A DNA stretch of 56,985 bases from Candidatus Buchananbacteria bacterium RIFCSPHIGHO2_02_FULL_39_17. GTDB lineage: Bacteria > Patescibacteriota > Patescibacteriia > Buchananbacterales > UBA6539. This document shows, piece after piece, positions 495 through 28,799 of this stretch. Every line of letters starts with the position of its first letter. Within the stretch, counting starts at the first letter, position 1. Both the position numbers and the translations under genes were made by a program. The notes under the pieces are model-generated. The model saw nothing but the letters and a program-made list of their open reading frames with translations, ran no database searches and was not told where the DNA came from. The stretch lies in contig MHII01000006.1 in NCBI GenBank assembly GCA_001817425.1, positions 1 through 56,985 of the forward strand, given 5' to 3'.

Positions 495-848
495 ATGCCA
501 AACAATAGTCCGAAAGGAGAGATAGTTAAAGTTAAGTTCCCAGTGGTAGTTGATAGTGGCAGGTGCCCGACCTGCGACGCTGACGTCAATCAATACATCA
601 GAGCCGCGGAAAAAGGAGAAATTGCTTTACCAACCTGCTGTCCTCACTGCGGCCAGCCCTTTGCTGAAGGCATTAAGAAACGAGTCTGGCGTTGTGGAAA
701 ATGCAACGGGGTTGTCCTTAACTTTGGTGAACAAAGATATTGCACTCATTGCCGAGGCGAATTAGTTTATCCGAAAGAAGCTGGTTACGAGGAACTGCTG
801 GCAAAAATGGAAAAAGAATCAGCCCAAGCAACAAAAGAGGTCGAATAG
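495..848 (+). CDS. multi-CxxC zinc-ribbon protein, unknown function
   Basis: SD AGGAGG lies 8 nt upstream of the ATG. Four Cys pairs are present (CPTC, CCPHC, CGKC, CTHC). Confidence 0.6.
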   Translation: MPNNSPKGEIVKVKFPVVVDSGRCPTCDADVNQYIRAAEKGEIALPTCCPHCGQPFAEGIKKRVWRCGKCNGVVLNFGEQRYCTHCRGELVYPKEAGYEELLAKMEKESAQATKEVE

Positions 849-2112: not shown

Positions 2113-4146
<2,034 letters not shown>

Positions 4147-4339
4147 AGTTAAGCGCTTCAAAATTAATATTATCTGAGTCTCGCCCCGCTCTAAACTAAA
4201 ATTAAAACACTAATTCTCCACAAATCAGCCGAAGGCGGTCTCCGCGCCAAATAAACTTTACAACTATCTAAAATTTCTCCGCGAGTTTAGGGCGGTGGTC
4301 CATGCGCATGCGAAGAGCGTTAAAAACTTAGACATTTAA
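4147..4339. mobile_element. miniature insertion after gyrB: spacer, ~112-nt structured element (4184-4295) and a displaced copy of the gyrB 3' end (4298-4339)
   Basis: 4298-4339 encodes [13 protein letters not shown], against [13 protein letters not shown] at 4105-4146. There are 7 differences in 42 nt, 6 of them synonymous. The element has inverted ends CCCCGCTCTAAACT/AGTTTAGGGCGG. Confidence 0.75.
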
Positions 4340-4387
4340 AAAAAGCCTGCCAAAAATTTGGCAGACAGACGAAGCAATCAAAGCTGA

Positions 4388-4798
4388 TTAAATATCCTCT
4401 AATCTAAAAATCATTTGACTTAAAACTGCCTGCATCTTTGTTACTTCTTTATCAGTGATTAGATTCTGAACTCCTGGCCTTGATTTTTTCGCTTGGCTTG
4501 AGGCAGATGGAATTTTTGTTTCCTCTGGCTCTCTTGCTAAATCATTACCAACAAGCTCTCTCAAAATCTCATTAATATGAGTTAATTGTTCCACAAGAGA
4601 CTTACGAAAACGGTTATCGCTTAGACGAGCAACCCACCAGTGAAGACAGTCAGGTAAAAACCTAACCATCAACAAAACCAGAGGTTTTTTGCAAGCAGAA
4701 CAATGGAAAGCTGAAATATTAATACCAAGGAAATTGCTTAGATTAAATTGCATCAGCAAACCGCAATGTGGACAACGAAAATCAATCTGATTTTTCAT
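4388..4798 (-). CDS. zinc-ribbon protein, unknown function
   Basis: SD GGGAGGG lies 6 nt upstream of the ATG at 4798. CPHC and CSAC pairs are present. Confidence 0.55.
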   Translation of the reverse strand: MKNQIDFRCPHCGLLMQFNLSNFLGINISAFHCSACKKPLVLLMVRFLPDCLHWWVARLSDNRFRKSLVEQLTHINEILRELVGNDLAREPEETKIPSASSQAKKSRPGVQNLITDKEVTKMQAVLSQMIFRLEDI

Positions 4799-5054
4799 TT
4801 TCTGCCCTCCCGATGGTTTAACGTTCAAGGAACAAAAGATCTTAATTTTATTATAATATTAAATAATAAAAAAATCTACCCCCTTGACGAACTTAAATTT
4901 CCTGTGGTATTATGAAATTAAAAAATAATCAATAATCTAAAAAGTCCCCGGGGGGCTTTTTAAAATCCCGCAATTGATACCAATTACGGAATGATATAAA
5001 TAAATTCGTAGCATCTGAAGATTCGCATAAATTAGCAAATTAGCATTGTGTTTT

Positions 5055-5985: not shown

Positions 5986-6411
5986 ATGGCGAAAAAAATT
6001 AAAACTATAGTCAAAATTCAGATTCCAGGCGCTCAAGCTAACCCCGCGCCACCAGTCGGTCCGGCTTTAGGTCAGCATGGCTTAAATATTGCTGAATTCT
6101 GCCAAAAATTTAATGAACGAACAAAAGACCGACCAGGTGAATTAACTCCGGTTGAAGTCACGATCTATGAAGATCGCACTTATTCTTTTGCCACCAAAAC
6201 TTCACCCGCTTCGGAATTACTAAAAAAGGCGGCTAAAATTGAAAAAGGTTCTGGCGACATTTTGAAAAAAAAGGTAGGTAAAGTCACCAAAGCCCAAGTT
6301 CGAGAAATTGCCCAGAAAAAAATGCCGGATTTAAATGCGAAAAATTTAGCTGGGGCGATGAAGATAATAGAAGGTACGGCTAGACAAATGGGGCTAGAGA
6401 TTACTGATTAA
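5986..6411 (+). CDS. rplK: 50S ribosomal protein L11
   Basis: [24 protein letters not shown] motif. Confidence 0.97.
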
Positions 6412-6538
6412 GATAAGTTAATAGGTTGTCCCGCTTCGCCTGCGGCGGGTGGGATCCTCGATTTTGCGCCAAATCTAAGATTTGGGCAAAATCGGGAAGG
6501 GAACAGCCAGACAAATGGGATTAGAAATAATTGAATAG
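6412..6538. mobile_element. miniature insertion after rplK: spacer, hairpin element and a displaced copy of the rplK 3' end (6498-6538)
   Basis: 6503-6538 encodes [11 protein letters not shown], against [11 protein letters not shown] at 6376-6411. The differences are mostly third-position. Hairpins CGATTTTGCGCCAAATCT/AGATTTGGGCAAAATCG and CCCGC..GCGGG lie in between. Confidence 0.7.
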
Positions 6539-6540
6539 AA

Positions 6541-6655
6541 AATAAATTCCAAATTACAAATAAATTTCAATAGTCAAAATCCAAAATATTTTAATATTTT
6601 AAAAATTGTGATTTCTAATTTATTTGGAATTTAAAATTTGGATTTTGGATTTTAA
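6541..6655. repeat. AT-rich long imperfect palindrome (terminator-like repeat family)
   Basis: Arms AAATTCCAAAT...ATTTGGAATTT surround the centre AAATATTTTAATATTT. A homologous copy lies at 49641-49752. Confidence 0.7.
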
Positions 6656-6692
6656 AACTTTATTTAATTTTAAATATTAAATATCTAAATAT

Positions 6693-7658
6693 ATGGAACA
6701 ACAACTAAACCAAACTTTCCAAACAACGGCTGATAAAACCATCAAAGGACCAAAATCGCTTTTTTGGTATCTGACTTTATTTTTTACCCTCGGCATTACC
6801 GCCTTTCAGGTCGGCGGGCTTTGGTTTCAGTTCATTAACAAATGGCTGCCCAAAGAAGTGATTAGCGGCATGGTCCAGCCGTCTTTTGACCAAACCGCCC
6901 TAAAATTTGCGGTCGCCAGCATCATTGTCGCCACTCCCCTTTATTTTACCTTTAGTTATCTAATCCGCCGGGCATTAAAAAATCATAATTTAGACCCGAA
7001 AAATAAAATTCGGGTTTGGATTACTTATATCATTTTATTTTTAACCGTTGCCATTGCTGTTGGCGATTTAATTAATGCAATTTTCCATGTCTTAAATGGC
7101 GATTATACTCTGCGGTTTATTTTAAAAAGCTTATCCATTCTGATTATCATCAGCTGGATTTTTACTTATTATTGGCTTGAATTACGGTCAGAAAATTCAT
7201 TGACGACTTCAATTCTACCAAAACAAATGGCGGGCATTACTATCGCCGTCATTGTTGTTTCTTTTATCGGCTCTTTTTTCGTCGTTGATTCACCCCGATT
7301 AGCCAGAAGCAAAGCCTATGACCACACTCGAGCCGCTAACCTCCAAGAAATTGAATTTTCGGTTCAGAATTATTACTATCAAAATCAAAAATTGCCCGCT
7401 GACTTAGAAACCTTAAGATTAGACAATGTCACACTCGCCATCAGTGATCCTTCGACTGATAAACCTTATGAGTACCGAACCATTGACGATAAAAATTATG
7501 AACTTTGCGCGGAATTTGAAAATTCCAACCTAGACGTTAAAAATCGAGAATTCCAGCCATACTATTCGGAATTTGCTTATCAAAAAGGACGAAATTGTTT
7601 CACCAAAAAAGTGGTCTTGCCCACGGATCTTCAGGCAAAGCCATTACCGATTAGATGA
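6693..7658 (+). CDS. multi-pass membrane protein inserted between rplK and rplA (DUF5671-like, from memory)
   Basis: 321-aa ORF with several TM helices in the N-terminal two thirds. It interrupts the usual rplK-rplA adjacency. Confidence 0.6.
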   Translation: MEQQLNQTFQTTADKTIKGPKSLFWYLTLFFTLGITAFQVGGLWFQFINKWLPKEVISGMVQPSFDQTALKFAVASIIVATPLYFTFSYLIRRALKNHNLDPKNKIRVWITYIILFLTVAIAVGDLINAIFHVLNGDYTLRFILKSLSILIIISWIFTYYWLELRSENSLTTSILPKQMAGITIAVIVVSFIGSFFVVDSPRLARSKAYDHTRAANLQEIEFSVQNYYYQNQKLPADLETLRLDNVTLAISDPSTDKPYEYRTIDDKNYELCAEFENSNLDVKNREFQPYYSEFAYQKGRNCFTKKVVLPTDLQAKPLPIR

Positions 7659-7774
7659 AGCTTTGGAGGATTTACATAATAAATTTTAATTTTGCGGGAC
7701 CTAAAATTAGTCATTTAGGGTTTGCGCCGCGAAACCAACTGCTTGAGGGTAAGGTTTGGTAAAAAAAATGAACT

Positions 7775-8452
7775 ATGCGTTCAAAACGTTATTTAGAAAC
7801 TGTCAAAAAAATTGATAAGAATAAAACTTATCCGATCAATGAAGCCATTAAATTAATTAAGCAAACCGCAACCACCAAATTTGATGGTTCGATTGAGGTT
7901 CACTGCCACCTGGGGATTGACCCGGGTAAAAGCGAACAACAAGTCAGAGGCGTTGTCAGCTTGCCTTATGGTACCGGCAAAACCAAAAAAATTATTGCCT
8001 TTGTCGGTCCGGAACAAGAAAAAATCGCAAAAGCATCGGGCGCCGATATTATTGGCGGCACTGAATTAATTGACCAAATTAAAAACACCGGCAAAGTTGA
8101 TTTTGATATTGCTGTAGCCACGCCTGACTTAATGCCCAAACTCGCGGCGATTGCTAAAATTTTAGGTCCCAAAGGCTTAATGCCTTCGCCCAAAAATGAA
8201 ACCATTACCAAAAATTTAGAAAAAACAATCGCGGAATTAAAAAAAGGCAAAATCAATTTCAAAAGTGATGATACCGGAAATATCCATCAGGTCATCGGCA
8301 AAGTTTCCTTTGTTGAAAACCAGCTTGAAGAAAATTTCCGCACCCTTATCGAAGCCGTCAAAAAAGCAAAACCTGCTTCCGCGAAAGGAATTTATCTGCA
8401 GAATGTCAGTCTTTCTTCCTCAATGGGGCCGGGGATTAAAGTAGAAATATAA
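7775..8452 (+). CDS. rplA: 50S ribosomal protein L1
   Basis: Motifs FDGSIEVHCHLGIDP, VRGVVSLPYGTGK and LGPKGLMPSPK. Confidence 0.96.
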   Translation: MRSKRYLETVKKIDKNKTYPINEAIKLIKQTATTKFDGSIEVHCHLGIDPGKSEQQVRGVVSLPYGTGKTKKIIAFVGPEQEKIAKASGADIIGGTELIDQIKNTGKVDFDIAVATPDLMPKLAAIAKILGPKGLMPSPKNETITKNLEKTIAELKKGKINFKSDDTGNIHQVIGKVSFVENQLEENFRTLIEAVKKAKPASAKGIYLQNVSLSSSMGPGIKVEI

Positions 8453-8502: not shown

Positions 8503-8895
8503 TTAATGATCCTTACCAATCTTATTTTGCATCAACTGTTTTAGCTCAAAAGTATCAGCGTGCTGGCAAACTCCAAAATAAGATGAAAAATTGTGGCTGT
8601 TTATTCTGTACAAGAACCGATGTTTTGTTTTAGTTCGCAAAACGACACCATATGGCGAATGAACATAGCCGACAAAATCAATCCCCTGGCTCCAAGACCT
8701 AATGTTAATTTTGACCGGATGAATTTTTAATTTTAATTTCTCGTTTAAAAATACGCTAACTTTGGGAATAATGCTCAAAAGATAGTGACGAGATTGATTA
8801 ATAATTAAAAAATCATCGCAATACCTTAAGTACCATTTTTCTCTTAAGCTGTGCTTAATAAAATAATCAAGTTCATTTAAGATAAATATTAGCAA
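8503..8895 (-). CDS. DGR-type reverse transcriptase, C-terminal part (motif 5 YCDD, thumb)
   Basis: Contains NELDYFIKH...RYCDDFLII and GIDFVGY. It continues the upstream ORF if one A of the AAA run (plus-strand TTT at 8876-8878) is removed. Confidence 0.85.
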   Translation of the reverse strand: MLIFILNELDYFIKHSLREKWYLRYCDDFLIINQSRHYLLSIIPKVSVFLNEKLKLKIHPVKINIRSWSQGIDFVGYVHSPYGVVLRTKTKHRFLYRINSHNFSSYFGVCQHADTFELKQLMQNKIGKDH

Positions 8896-9571
8896 AAAGT
8901 TGACTTGTCAAATTACCAAGTGGCAGACCTTTGTTCGGCGCCTTAGAAAAACTACCAATAATATGCCTTAACAGTTTAATTGTTTTTTCGTCTTTAATTT
9001 GGCAGCAAATAAAATCTAAAAGAATATTATGGTCAATGCTGTCAAAAAATTTGCTGACATCACACTTTAAAGCATAAATAGTTTTAGTGTTATTCTGGCT
9101 AGCTTTTGACAAAAAATCACGCAGGCGATAGGAAGCGCCGTGAATGCCCTTGCCAATTCGGCAGGAAAAGCTATTAAAAATAAATCGTTTTTCAAAAATT
9201 GGCTCAATAATGTTGACTACGGCCTGATGGACAATTCTATCTTTTACCGTGGTTTTATGAATTTGGCGCTTTTTAGGATCATAAACAATAAAAGGCTGAT
9301 ATTTACCATGGCAATAATTTTGATTTTTTAATTCAGCCTGTAGATTAAAAAGATTCTCTTCTAAATTTCTTTCATAAATCATTACATCTCGGCGAGAGTG
9401 TTTGCTTTTGGCAAACTTATACCAAGCTAAAAAAACATTTTCTAGGAAGAAAATTTTATCATAAAGCGATTTACTGGTATAATTATTATTACCATGACCC
9501 AAAATGATTTTATTAATCCCCCCCCCAACGGGTCTTACGGAAAAAGCATGCTGGATATTCCGATTATTCAT
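8873..9571 (-). CDS. DGR-type reverse transcriptase, N-terminal part (motifs 1-4), ending at a frameshift
   Basis: Contains DPKKRQIHKTTVKDRIVHQAV, KCDVSKFFDSIDH and the motif-4 sequence GLPLGNLTSQ ([ILV]GxxxSQ, the DGR hallmark). The start is uncertain because it overlaps the divergent avd. Confidence 0.85.
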   Translation of the reverse strand: MNNRNIQHAFSVRPVGGGINKIILGHGNNNYTSKSLYDKIFFLENVFLAWYKFAKSKHSRRDVMIYERNLEENLFNLQAELKNQNYCHGKYQPFIVYDPKKRQIHKTTVKDRIVHQAVVNIIEPIFEKRFIFNSFSCRIGKGIHGASYRLRDFLSKASQNNTKTIYALKCDVSKFFDSIDHNILLDFICCQIKDEKTIKLLRHIIGSFSKAPNKGLPLGNLTSQLFANIYLK

Positions 9572-9889
9572 CTGCTTTATGATTTTTATAAATTATGGCA
9601 CAAAGTTAGTTTAAACTTCCCTAAATCCCAGCGCTACACCCTAGGGCAAATCTGCGGCACTGATTTGTTACTGCTTTTAAAAAATATCTTGGCCGCTTCG
9701 GCAACCAAAGATCGAAAAATAAAATTAGAAAAACTGCGCCAGGCCAGCATCAAGCTTGATCTGATAAAAATTCTTATCAGGTTAGCTAAAGACTGCGACT
9801 GCCTACAAAATAAATCATATTTAGAGCTTCAGTCAAAACTCCATGGTATCGGCAAGATGCTTGGCGGCTGGATTAAATCTCTTGAATAA
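9548..9889 (+). CDS. avd: four-helix-bundle protein, Avd-like (23S rRNA IVS protein family)
   Basis: PKSQRYTLGQ and ...LHGIGKMLGGWIKSL are typical of this family. It is adjacent to the RT and TR but on the opposite strand. Confidence 0.75.
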   Translation: MLDIPIIHLLYDFYKLWHKVSLNFPKSQRYTLGQICGTDLLLLLKNILAASATKDRKIKLEKLRQASIKLDLIKILIRLAKDCDCLQNKSYLELQSKLHGIGKMLGGWIKSLE

Positions 9890-9942
9890 AAATTTACACA
9901 AACACCCGGTAAATTAACCGAGTGTTTGCTATTTTTGGCAAG

Positions 9943-10076
9943 CATTCCCAAAGACAGGAACCGCCCGGTGGCCGTGACGATTAGAAGCGTCGTCGGCCTT
10001 GAGCTTGACTTGACGATTATCGCAATTCCAGTTCAAGTTCGGCACGTATGACCAAGGCTGGTTGCCCGAAACAGAT
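9943..10076 (-). repeat. DGR template repeat (TR)
   Basis: Non-coding copy of the VR. On the minus strand it carries AAY codons at the positions that differ in the VR. Confidence 0.85.
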
Positions 10077-10103
10077 TAAATATTTCTATTCTTCCATTGC
10101 ACC

Positions 10104-10125
10104 GGACACAGGCGCACCCGTGTCC
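10104..10125. promoter_or_regulatory. GC-rich hairpin flanking the TR
   Basis: GGACAC-A-GG CGCA CC-C-GTGTCC, 28 nt from the TR end. Confidence 0.5.
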
Positions 10126-10398
10126 TGAATTTTATGCAAGATATAAGCTTGAAGCTTTATCTTAAAATAGAAATACGGAGTGCTTTACCATTGCTCTGCT
10201 CTCTTTTGACCGCCAACAGAAGCAGCCAAAACTTTGACAGATAAATGCAAGATAAAAAATTTCGGCGATTCCGATTCTTAAACCGGAATTCATAAGCCTA
10301 CTCTTTCGGTAATAATTATAGCATAATAAAAACAGGGTTTGAAGACCAAGATCCAAAAACCTTGAATTTCCAAACCCCAAAAGGCCAAGTACCGAATA

Positions 10399-11175
10399 CT
10401 AACACTCCACAAAGACAGGAACCGCCCGGTGGTAGTGACGAATAGAAGCGTCGTCGGCACTGAGCCTGACTTGACGACACCCGTAATGCCAGCACAAGTC
10501 CGGCACGTACGACCAAGGCTGGCTGCCCGAAATAGATAGCTGATAGCCAGGCAACCAGACGAACGGCACTTTGACGCCGTCCATTGCCTGTATCCACCGG
10601 GGGAAACAAGATGCCGCCCACAAGATTGCCGAAGGCAGCGAGGTTTTAGGAGTATGGACAGTTGGAGCAATGCCGTCTTTCTTATCCCAGTTGGCGGCGA
10701 AGTCAACTACTCGCCAGTGCAAACCGCGCTGATGAATAATGCCATCGAGCAACTTGAGATGATTTTCGTCGGACTTTACCTCGGGCCAGCGCCATTCACC
10801 TGGCTGAACCGCTTTGGTGAAATACCAGCCTTCTTCAAAAGTCCGGCTAACCGTGTCCAAAGACACATCCAGCACGACGGCGCAAAGATAGCCATCTGGC
10901 CAGGCCGGTGGCGGGCCAAGCGCTTCAAAGTCGGCTTCGGTAAAACCCCAATGGCGCTCGGCATTGCGCTGTCTGGTCAGTTCAAGTTGTTTTTCCGGCG
11001 GGATGAAAAACGACCGTCGGTCAATCAGCTTTGACACCTCCCGCATCACCTCGTCGGGATTAAGCGAGCCTTTACGGACGCGCTCAAACACATCGTGCTG
11101 GTGGCGGGCAAATTCGCCCAGCTTATCATCGGTGGGCACTACTCTTTTTTCGTCCGCGACAATTTCGGTTGTCAT
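10399..11175 (-). CDS. DGR target protein with a C-terminal variable region
   Basis: 258-aa GC-rich ORF. The last ~45 codons are the VR (...SGSQPWSYVPDLCWHYGCRQVRLSADDASIRHYHRAVPVFVEC). Confidence 0.8.
   Translation of the reverse strand: MTTEIVADEKRVVPTDDKLGEFARHQHDVFERVRKGSLNPDEVMREVSKLIDRRSFFIPPEKQLELTRQRNAERHWGFTEADFEALGPPPAWPDGYLCAVVLDVSLDTVSRTFEEGWYFTKAVQPGEWRWPEVKSDENHLKLLDGIIHQRGLHWRVVDFAANWDKKDGIAPTVHTPKTSLPSAILWAASCFPRWIQAMDGVKVPFVWLPGYQLSISGSQPWSYVPDLCWHYGCRQVRLSADDASIRHYHRAVPVFVEC
10403..10537 (-). repeat. DGR variable repeat (VR) at the 3' end of the target gene
   Basis: The 127-bp core 10411-10537 aligns without gaps to 9950-10076 with 18 mismatches. Twelve of them are at TR adenines on the minus strand. 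Confidence 0.85.
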
Positions 11176-28643: not shown

Positions 28644-28799
28644 CATATAACACGGTTTATGTGATTCCCCTCTCGACTCGTCGCTATGCTCCTCACTCGA
28701 GGTTCACCCAAATTTTGATATTATTTCTGTGATTTACTCCGCAATATTATATCACAGAAATAATTATCAAAACTTCATATAAACTGGTAACGTTAGGTG
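28644..28799 (+). repeat. attC-like imperfect palindrome (S1)
   Basis: Starts CATATAAC-ACGGT-TTATGTG and ends CATATAA-ACTGGTAAC-G|TTAGGTG. Extra unpaired bases lie on the 3' arm. Confidence 0.6.

Follow-up and report, generated by a model that had tools for sequence, protein, structure and literature searches.

The prophage e14 of Escherichia coli is flanked on one side by icd, which extends into the prophage, and on the other by icdC, a C-terminal pseudogene, and its excision swaps synonymous sites together with two aspartate-to-glutamate residues (PMC13626634). The arrangement analysed here is a far smaller one, found at the 3' end of rplK, the gene for ribosomal protein L11, in a 56,985-nt stretch of DNA (contig MHII01000006.1, assembly GCA_001817425.1; 40% G+C; hereafter, the window) from a Candidatus Buchananbacteria of Rifle groundwater, a member of the candidate phyla radiation (CPR). 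As with e14 (and phage 21) in the icd gene of E. coli, the 3' end of a coding gene is duplicated as direct repeats, the working gene being intact and the other copy an orphan C-terminal fragment; in both systems the copies differ synonymously and by conservative changes, among them aspartate to glutamate. The systems differ in that e14 is 15 kb long, encodes an integrase, is excised upon SOS induction and has a repeat of ~165 bp, whereas the rplK unit consists of 88 nt with no gene, between 39-nt repeats, and contains a 45-nt palindrome that is conserved across species. A second comparison is offered by the cis-mobilizable elements (CIME) of Streptococcus thermophilus at the 3' end of fda and by the decayed islands at tRNA and tmRNA genes, which are integrase-less derivatives flanked by attachment (att) sites. 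In these, too, a short, non-autonomous segment lies between an attL and an attR derived from the 3' end of a conserved gene, but the known examples are kilobases long and lie beside, or derive from, identifiable integrative and conjugative elements, while the rplK unit is shorter than 100 nt and occurs in CPR bacteria, which have tiny genomes and few recognised mobile elements. There is about an even chance that the rplK arrangement is a duplication of the attL/attR type, due to a site-specific integrative element that brought its own gene tail with it and has been reduced to ~90 nt; it would then be, for the most part, an event of known type whose setting is new in the CPR hosts, the use of rplK and gyrB tails and the miniature size.

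The gene, its duplicated tail and the intervening insert were delimited as follows (positions are those of the window):

5986–6411, forward strand: rplK (ribosomal protein L11), an intact 141-aa frame matching Pfam Ribosomal_L11_N and Ribosomal_L11, with 79% identity to Buchananbacteria L11
6373–6411, forward strand: direct repeat copy 1, the functional last 12 rplK codons and stop, an attL-like junction; GGTACGGCTAGACAAATGGGGCTAGAGATTACTGATTAA
6412–6424, forward strand: spacer 3' of the rplK stop, 13 nt (4, 11, 13 or 21 nt across species)
6425–6455, forward strand: a conserved GTTG and then hairpin 1, with a GC-rich stem; structure kept in the four-species folds, sequence 55–80% identical between species
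6455–6499, forward strand: hairpin 2, the 45-nt conserved palindrome TCCTCGATTTTGCGCCAAATCTAAGATTTGGGCAAAATCGGGAAG; the sequence-conserved core of the element, adjoining the orphan tail
6500–6538, forward strand: direct repeat copy 2, the orphan L11 tail, an attR-like junction, apparently untranslated; GGAACAGCCAGACAAATGGGATTAGAAATAATTGAATAG

The two copies, 6373–6411 and 6500–6538, were identical at 29 of 39 nt and 10 of 12 residues, with their stop codons in register, which confirms the repeat reported in a preliminary description of this locus. That description had put the differences at about ten, mostly at third codon positions, and this held: ten were counted, eight at third positions and eight synonymous (the stop codon included), while the two nonsynonymous changes from functional tail to orphan were threonine to isoleucine and aspartate to glutamate. 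The longest identical block was 11 nt (AGACAAATGGG). When the 600 nt downstream were shuffled, the best 12-residue match was 6/12 in 3000 shuffles and the best 39-mer identity was 24 in 1000 shuffles, against 10/12 and 29 observed; since the shuffles never approached the observed match, chance is excluded as a source of the repeat, and the similarity at the orphan stands above chance level, as had been supposed.

The 88-nt insert contains no gene. It folded at -41.8 kcal/mol (z = -4.4), with none of 200 shuffles folding as well; pairing spanned 6428–6455 in hairpin 1 and 6457–6496 in hairpin 2, the latter having an 18-bp stem with one bulge and a 3-nt loop. The double hairpin originally proposed between the copies is therefore real, although the accompanying spacer measured 13 nt rather than 16. 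No intrinsic terminator was called at 6428–6496 and there was no T-tract, the sequence being ATCCTCGATTTTG after hairpin 1 and GGGAAGGG after hairpin 2. Among the Rfam 15 covariance models there was no match to the element at gathering scores, and a relaxed threshold gave a chance hairpin (mir-4520, E 0.52). For want of a T-tract and of an Rfam family, both a terminator and a known RNA family were rejected.

A survey of ~160 distinct rplK loci identified the hairpin unit, each time with its own orphan L11 tail, in three further CPR species, always at the rplK tail and at the same codon. These were L086 (DATDWV010000088) and L001 (Buchananbacteria, MHIE01000016), both Buchananbacteria-like, and L064 (Portnoybacteria, MHMW01000016). 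The unit was absent from ~150 other rplK loci, where the tail was single, including those of the closest relatives, L002 and L003; the phylogeny obtained from NusG, L1 and GyrB identities was ((window, L086), (L002, L003)), L001. Occupied and single-tail rplK sites both exist among relatives, at the same position. A pattern scan for the conserved hairpin, which covered species-representative genomes, a collection of metagenomes and viral contigs, yielded no species beyond these four, while neither a covariance model run over 100 rplK loci (0.83 Mb) nor blastn over all collected DNA added a further member, and a second rplK survey around L064 gave no additional tail duplication. The hairpin unit with its orphan tail is thus a distinct unit of four species only.

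Within these four species the 45-nt palindrome was 87–96% identical in all pairs, as against 71–79% for the last 120 nt of the rplK body, and the palindrome of L064 included one compensatory pair (C-G to U-A). The longest identical block between tails was 27 nt in L086, 8 nt in L001 and 5 nt in L064. An upstream extension of the repeat into hairpin 2 was considered and rejected, given that a 10-mer match was present in L086 only (5/500 shuffles) and in none of the others. The unit is small, forms a strong hairpin and lies directly past a stop codon, properties that are shared by repetitive extragenic palindromes and bacterial interspersed mosaic elements (REP/BIME), Correia elements, Rickettsia palindromic elements (RPE) and miniature inverted-repeat transposable elements (MITEs). 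These are multi-copy and have short target duplications or none, whereas the rplK unit is gene-specific and has a 39-nt flanking repeat; the palindrome occurred once in the 57-kb window and the hairpin unit once per genome in the species-representative collection, and so a repeat of the MITE or REP kind was rejected.

Tail duplication was then sought in every open reading frame (ORF) of all collected loci (~1.8 Mb), using the last 11–12 residues as the query and searching downstream; real cases were confined to rplK and gyrB. The window has one at each gene, the second being:

4106–4340, forward strand: gyrB tail duplication; functional tail 4106–4146, 152-nt insert 4147–4298, orphan 4299–4339

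Here the repeat (4106–4147 versus 4299–4340) was identical at 36 of 42 nt and the protein tail was identical, while the insert was closed by a 15-bp terminal stem in which GTCTCGCCCCGCTCTAAACT pairs with AGTTTAGGGCGGTGG; the view that rplK shares its architecture with gyrB while the element family differs was upheld. The same gyrB insert family was present in L002 (1766–2010), with a covarying closing stem (CCTCAAGCC/GGCTTGAGG) a near-identical 62-nt repeat that ran 21 nt beyond the stop, and a 9-nt in-frame deletion in the orphan; L003 (2330–2440) retained only the left part of the insert. In L059 (CAZMYO010000050; 1771–2119) the gyrB tail, QTYAKSVQNLDI and stop, was duplicated around an 83-aa ORF without a Pfam match; the two tails encoded identical protein, their seven nucleotide differences were all synonymous, and the next gene began 8 nt past the orphan stop. 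The direct repeat ended exactly at the stop codon in all tail duplications except one, and extension past the stop was significant solely for gyrB in L002. A survey of 80 further gyrB loci yielded no additional tail duplication. Just past the gyrB orphan of the window there is a convergent 146-aa gene (4388–4828, minus strand) whose product weakly matches the zinc-ribbon of the IS1595 transposase, at an E of 5.6e-4 that does not reach the cutoff.

A further rplK case concerned L035 (Nealsonbacteria, VGKE01000009; 3549–3976), where an orphan reading TARNMGIEVE and stop followed the rplK stop at a distance of 393 nt. Its insert was unrelated to the hairpin unit. It contained a hairpin resembling a terminator, a pair of perfect palindromes of 22 nt each, and the 3' end, ~40 codons long, of a gene for a tyrosine recombinase (C-terminal fragment LGHSQLASSFQYTQV, within the peptide ...IISEALGHSQLASSFQYTQVNNEDLEFALRK). 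This fragment matched tyrosine recombinases only, in three libraries and at the end that bears the catalytic tyrosine: XerA in PDB (4a8e, E 0.006), XerA in NCBIfam (E 0.0018) and Phage_integrase in Pfam (E 0.052, positions 139–170 of 172). Each match fell below the family threshold because just ~40 residues remain, and the agreement of the three libraries makes a decayed recombinase gene a reasonable reading; a word search found no homologue of the remnant. In the rplK inserts of the hairpin family and of L035 the repeat started at the same glycine codon, that of GTAR, and in the gyrB inserts of the window/L002 family and of L059 the starts fell within 3 nt of each other and within 3 nt of the codon 12–13 positions before the stop. 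That unrelated inserts should have a common repeat boundary in the same gene tails points to site specificity.

This boundary bears upon a rival explanation in which no dedicated recombinase took part. Related CPR DNA, consisting of an rplK tail and what lies downstream, could have been recombined into the chromosome by homology, with the left crossover in the conserved rplK body and the right join at the recipient tail, the sole conserved sequence to the right; the insert would later have spread by homologous recombination, with the orphan as its right arm. Such an import would account for tails that look foreign and are synonymously recoded, for cargo that varies from hairpins to the 83-aa ORF of L059, and for the lack of a recombinase in the window. 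The repeats, at 36–62 nt, are also near the minimal length for efficient recombination, as known from minimal processing segments and recombineering arms. However, illegitimate joins should vary in position, while unrelated inserts have a common boundary in both genes; RecA acts poorly on tails with just 72–76% identity over 39 nt; and neither the conserved palindrome nor the recombinase remnant of L035 is predicted or explained. Homology-driven import is consequently judged improbable.

The manner in which the tails have diverged was informative. Across seven tail pairs there were 4–11 nucleotide differences each and 0–3 residue changes; the tails of L064 differed at 10 nt, including serine codons TCA and AGT, and at no residue. 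A decay simulation was used in which a tail was duplicated in situ, the working copy was constrained and the orphan drifted neutrally. A freely decaying duplicate was rejected over the seven pairs (Fisher combined P = 6e-13), with individual values that lay between 2.5e-5, for L064, and 0.54, for L086, whose tails were homogenised recently. Divergence that is almost wholly synonymous implies that both copies were under coding constraint for nearly all of it. Gene conversion between copies was also visible, as a 27-nt identical tract in L086 and as the near-identical gyrB repeat in L002, and the orphan resembled the L11 tail of its own species, with GIKVE and stop in both copies of L064 and GLE(I/V)... 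in both Buchananbacteria copies.

The same mismatches bear on an origin in the diversity-generating retroelement (DGR) that lies 2 kb away in the window. In a DGR, too, the template/variable repeat pair amounts to an imperfect second copy of the 3' coding end of a gene at a short distance, a hairpin separating the two, and the orphan has adenine at six of its ten mismatches. Yet the other four of this locus and the majority in L064 fall at bases other than adenine; a separate template/variable pair belongs to the DGR; and the duplications concern rplK and gyrB with, at rplK, a 39-nt repeat, and not a variable ligand-binding protein. Assembly error was ruled out by the concordance of eight independent assemblies (NCBI, ENA, JGI and Logan), all of which contained the region with 0–2 differences; artefact and chance are contradicted too by the four species that have the unit and by shuffles that never came close. 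A DGR by-product, an artefact and a coincidence were therefore all refuted and retain next to no credibility.

One nucleotide position was consistent throughout: in each of the four species, the orphan and the resident functional tail could be told apart at nt 3, the first position to differ. This is what might be seen if the hairpins were a scaffold and the orphan, directly 3' of it, a guide by which an RNA-guided nuclease or recombinase encoded in trans was brought to unoccupied rplK tails. Guide RNAs of the Cas12/TnpB type have this layout, a structured RNA with a target-matching stretch on its 3' side, and a guide that matched a coding target would look codon-conserved without being translated. 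Against this, the window has no such enzyme, nothing like the scaffold accompanies the duplications of L035 and L059, a guide of 39 nt would be a long one, and the idea is purely architectural; RNA-guided homing must be considered very improbable. A broader form of the same analogy, that hairpins and orphan constitute a working module (as one RNA, or as DNA) which directs an enzyme acting in trans to unoccupied rplK tails, and so would be self-propagating and gene-specific, with gyrB using an analogous module on a different scaffold, appears scarcely less far-fetched.

Whether the orphan might be translated was assessed from its reading frames. Relative to rplK, the frame of the orphan was offset by +1, +2, +1 and +2 in the four species, and there was no conserved start codon; in the window, an in-frame stop occurred eight codons upstream of the orphan, within the loop of hairpin 2. 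In L064 (4417–4539), an ATG overlapping the rplK stop (GAATGA) opened a 39-codon frame that crossed both hairpins to the orphan stop, which was not so in the other three species; the frame into the orphan was also open for 25–28 codons in L086 and L001. Given that these frames are not conserved, that a stop intervenes in the window and that the species have no start codon in common, translation of the orphan, whether by readthrough, by frameshift or from a small ORF, is unlikely.

These results allow another alternative to be weighed, in which the structure is retained by the host. The tail would have been duplicated locally and the hairpins kept because they were useful, for instance as stem-loops of the 3' untranslated region that stabilise the rplK message or insulate it from the message for the downstream DUF5671 membrane-protein gene and rplA; the orphan would have stayed coding-shaped through direct selection, involving some translation, or through conversion into the working copy. 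The unit is present in the window, L086 and L001 with a divergence that tracks the hosts, which fits descent from a Buchananbacteria ancestor, yet all orphans are intact. Retention of this kind is further consistent with the 87–96% conservation of hairpin 2, with the existence of conversion tracts, and with the 39-codon frame of L064 and the 25–28 open codons of L086 and L001. It sits poorly with the stop in the hairpin-2 loop of the window, with a start codon that is not conserved and offsets to the rplK frame that vary, with the lack of an Rfam match or of a terminator-like T-tract, and with the absence of the unit from ~150 rplK loci, the nearest relatives among them. Moreover, 72–74% identity over 36–39 nt should nearly block conversion, yet L064 has no residue differences, and the unrelated inserts at the same tail positions and the recombinase remnant of L035 are left unexplained. 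Retention by the host is accordingly held to be unlikely, without being negligible.

An att-type duplication would accommodate the greater part of these observations in the following way. A small element would have entered the 3' end of rplK by site-specific recombination of the tyrosine-recombinase type, bringing its own copy of the last codons of its target such that the gene was intact after integration, and the displaced tail would have been left at the far side as an untranslated orphan. What is now present, ~90 nt of spacer, GC hairpin and conserved 45-nt palindrome, has no recombinase gene left; it may persist as a stable remnant, or else be a non-autonomous mini-element that is mobilised in trans. 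The differences between the tails would be almost exclusively synonymous because each had evolved as a working L11 tail, one in earlier hosts of the element and the other in the present lineage; parts of the copies would be homogenised from time to time by gene conversion, and recombination between the copies would delete the element cleanly. The expected empty site would read AAGATAATAGAA joined to a single tail and then AAAATAAATTCC, and the junction of the expected circle (attP) would read CAAAATCGGGAAG-tail-GATAAGTTAATAGGTTGTCCC. The palindrome might serve as a site for the recombinase or an accessory protein, or else as a stem-loop at the 3' end of the mRNA.

As to which tail came in, the orphan lies next to the DUF5671 gene, as does the native tail in L002, and this position favours the orphan as the ancestral end of rplK; the analogy with e14 and icd also favours it. 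The D-TAA with which the functional copy terminates resembles the relatives that have no element, the orphans having E-TAG or E-TAA in its place, and the codon usage of the two tails gave mixed signs that were uninformative as to which is native.

The anatomy agrees with an att-type event in the window and in L086, L001 and L064 alike, where direct repeats of the 3' end of the target flank the insert, the gene is intact and the second copy is an orphan. Several observations weigh against it nonetheless. No recombinase was found in the 88-nt insert or among the ORFs of the 57-kb window by motif scan or Pfam, no member of the hairpin family adjoined one, and a motif scan of all loci placed none near rplK; for this reason the likeness of the hairpin unit to e14-type duplications is incomplete. 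The one recombinase remnant comes from a different insert, that of L035, and is below threshold in each library. Assemblies of the same strain contained no empty-site variant or excised form, and no L11 with a hybrid tail was present in the protein cluster. There was no copy in viral contigs, where degenerate tail patterns gave ordinary rplK genes or chance matches (L259, within an RNA-virus polyprotein). The tails have only a short identical core in common, of 5, 8 and 11 nt in L064, L001 and the window, respectively, and the divergence of the element tracks that of its hosts, which fits long vertical inheritance. Vertical inheritance of intact orphans requires continued constraint, which a dead remnant does not explain, nor does a mere scar predict strong conservation of the palindrome. 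Hence the 45-nt palindrome, more conserved than the adjoining ribosomal protein gene, and the durable orphan tails, which remain coding-shaped, are the part that the att-type reading leaves unexplained.

If integration is nevertheless the correct explanation, the tails of two core genes, rplK and gyrB, would be attachment sites for tyrosine-recombinase elements in this group of bacteria, and the remains of such elements could shrink below 100 nt and still persist across species. A synonymously recoded orphan tail within a few hundred nucleotides of the stop codon of a conserved gene would then be a signature of integration events in metagenome-assembled genomes. Annotators should be aware that orphan tails of this kind are not assembly errors.

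The local gene order is gyrB, the convergent zinc-ribbon gene, secE, nusG, rplK, the DUF5671 gene, rplA and then the DGR. The features between the orphan tail and rplA, and rplA itself, were:

6539–6692, forward strand: AT-rich spacer with short tandem repeats and a weak inverted repeat, outside the element
6693–7658, forward strand: DUF5671 membrane-protein gene, 321 aa (Pfam PF18920, E 1.8e-18)
7694–7731, forward strand: L1-leader-like motif, GCGGGACC-hairpin-GCGCCGCG, upstream of rplA
7775–8452, forward strand: rplA (ribosomal protein L1)

The preliminary description had the L11–L1 operon interrupted by ~1.36 kb. The distance from rplK stop to rplA start is indeed 1363 nt (a gap of more than 400 nt was present in 12 of 54 loci), but it is not a single interruption. 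At least three separate things make up the gap, namely the DUF5671 gene, the hairpin unit with its orphan, and the AT-rich, low-complexity spacer, and for these the window implies three separate origins. The 321-aa membrane ORF proved to be a genuine gene, and orthologues occupied the same place between rplK and rplA in L086 (63% identity), L002 (51%) and L001 (45%). In L002 the DUF5671 gene starts 19 nt past rplK, without hairpin element or orphan tail, from which it follows that DUF5671 is an older, clade-wide feature of gene order that is unrelated to the duplication; phylogeny and distribution together make its insertion ancestral to the clade, the hairpin unit by contrast being missing from L002 and L003. 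The synteny of rplK and rplA in relatives, raised as a check at the outset, therefore gave a divided answer, with DUF5671 clade-wide and the hairpin unit with its orphan far from universal.

A 115-bp AT-rich palindrome singled out in the preliminary description did not stand up as a special structure. The arms of the inverted repeat (6544–6590 and 6593–6639) were just 72% complementary, the fold was unexceptional (z = -1.6; 12 of 200 shuffles as good), and the region consists of tandem repeats. The spacer was absent in L001 and L002, where the DUF5671 gene lies 35 and 19 nt after the tail, respectively. AT-rich tandem motifs (aaattccaaatt, attttaa, cgaaata, cattact) recurred directly after rplK in many CPR loci (e.g., L015, L026, L028, L036 and L054) as well as at 6539–6692 of the window, and in L026 they lengthened the L11 reading frame by 10 residues.

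Ribosomal protein L1 regulates its own synthesis by recognising, on its own mRNA, a site that resembles the L1 site of 23S rRNA. A motif of the form G(Y)GGGA(S)-hairpin-CC(R)C was present upstream of rplA in 32 of 54 loci (L001–L080 series), and its closing pair covaried (UGG/CCA in 24, CGG/CCG in 7; GCGG...CCGC in the window). With its GGGA helix, position and covarying closing helix, 7694–7731 fits a predicted L1 autoregulatory leader, the retention of which had been put forward as a point to check. No Rfam model matched the motif. L086 seems to be without it, there being just 35 nt between the DUF5671 gene and rplA.

Elsewhere in the window, four related direct repeats of 33–48 nt (TCACCCAAATTT...) occurred between 28704 and 31467, at 28704, 29397, 30880 and 31435 and with a spacing of 555–1483 nt; the ORFs of this region had no Pfam match. 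In sister assemblies, an IS1595-type DDE transposase fragment was present at the contig edge, to the left of a 117-aa ORF (window 495–848). The DGR occupies 8503–11175. Its reverse transcriptase is split into two overlapping minus-strand ORFs (8873–9571 and 8503–8895), for which the gene calls vary by assembly (169, 209 or 232 aa), and the bAvd accessory gene is at 9494–9889. The template repeat (9949–10076) and the variable repeat (10410–10537) were 86% identical, with 12 of 18 mismatches at template adenines, and the variable repeat is situated at the 3' end of a 258-aa target gene (10399–11175, minus strand).

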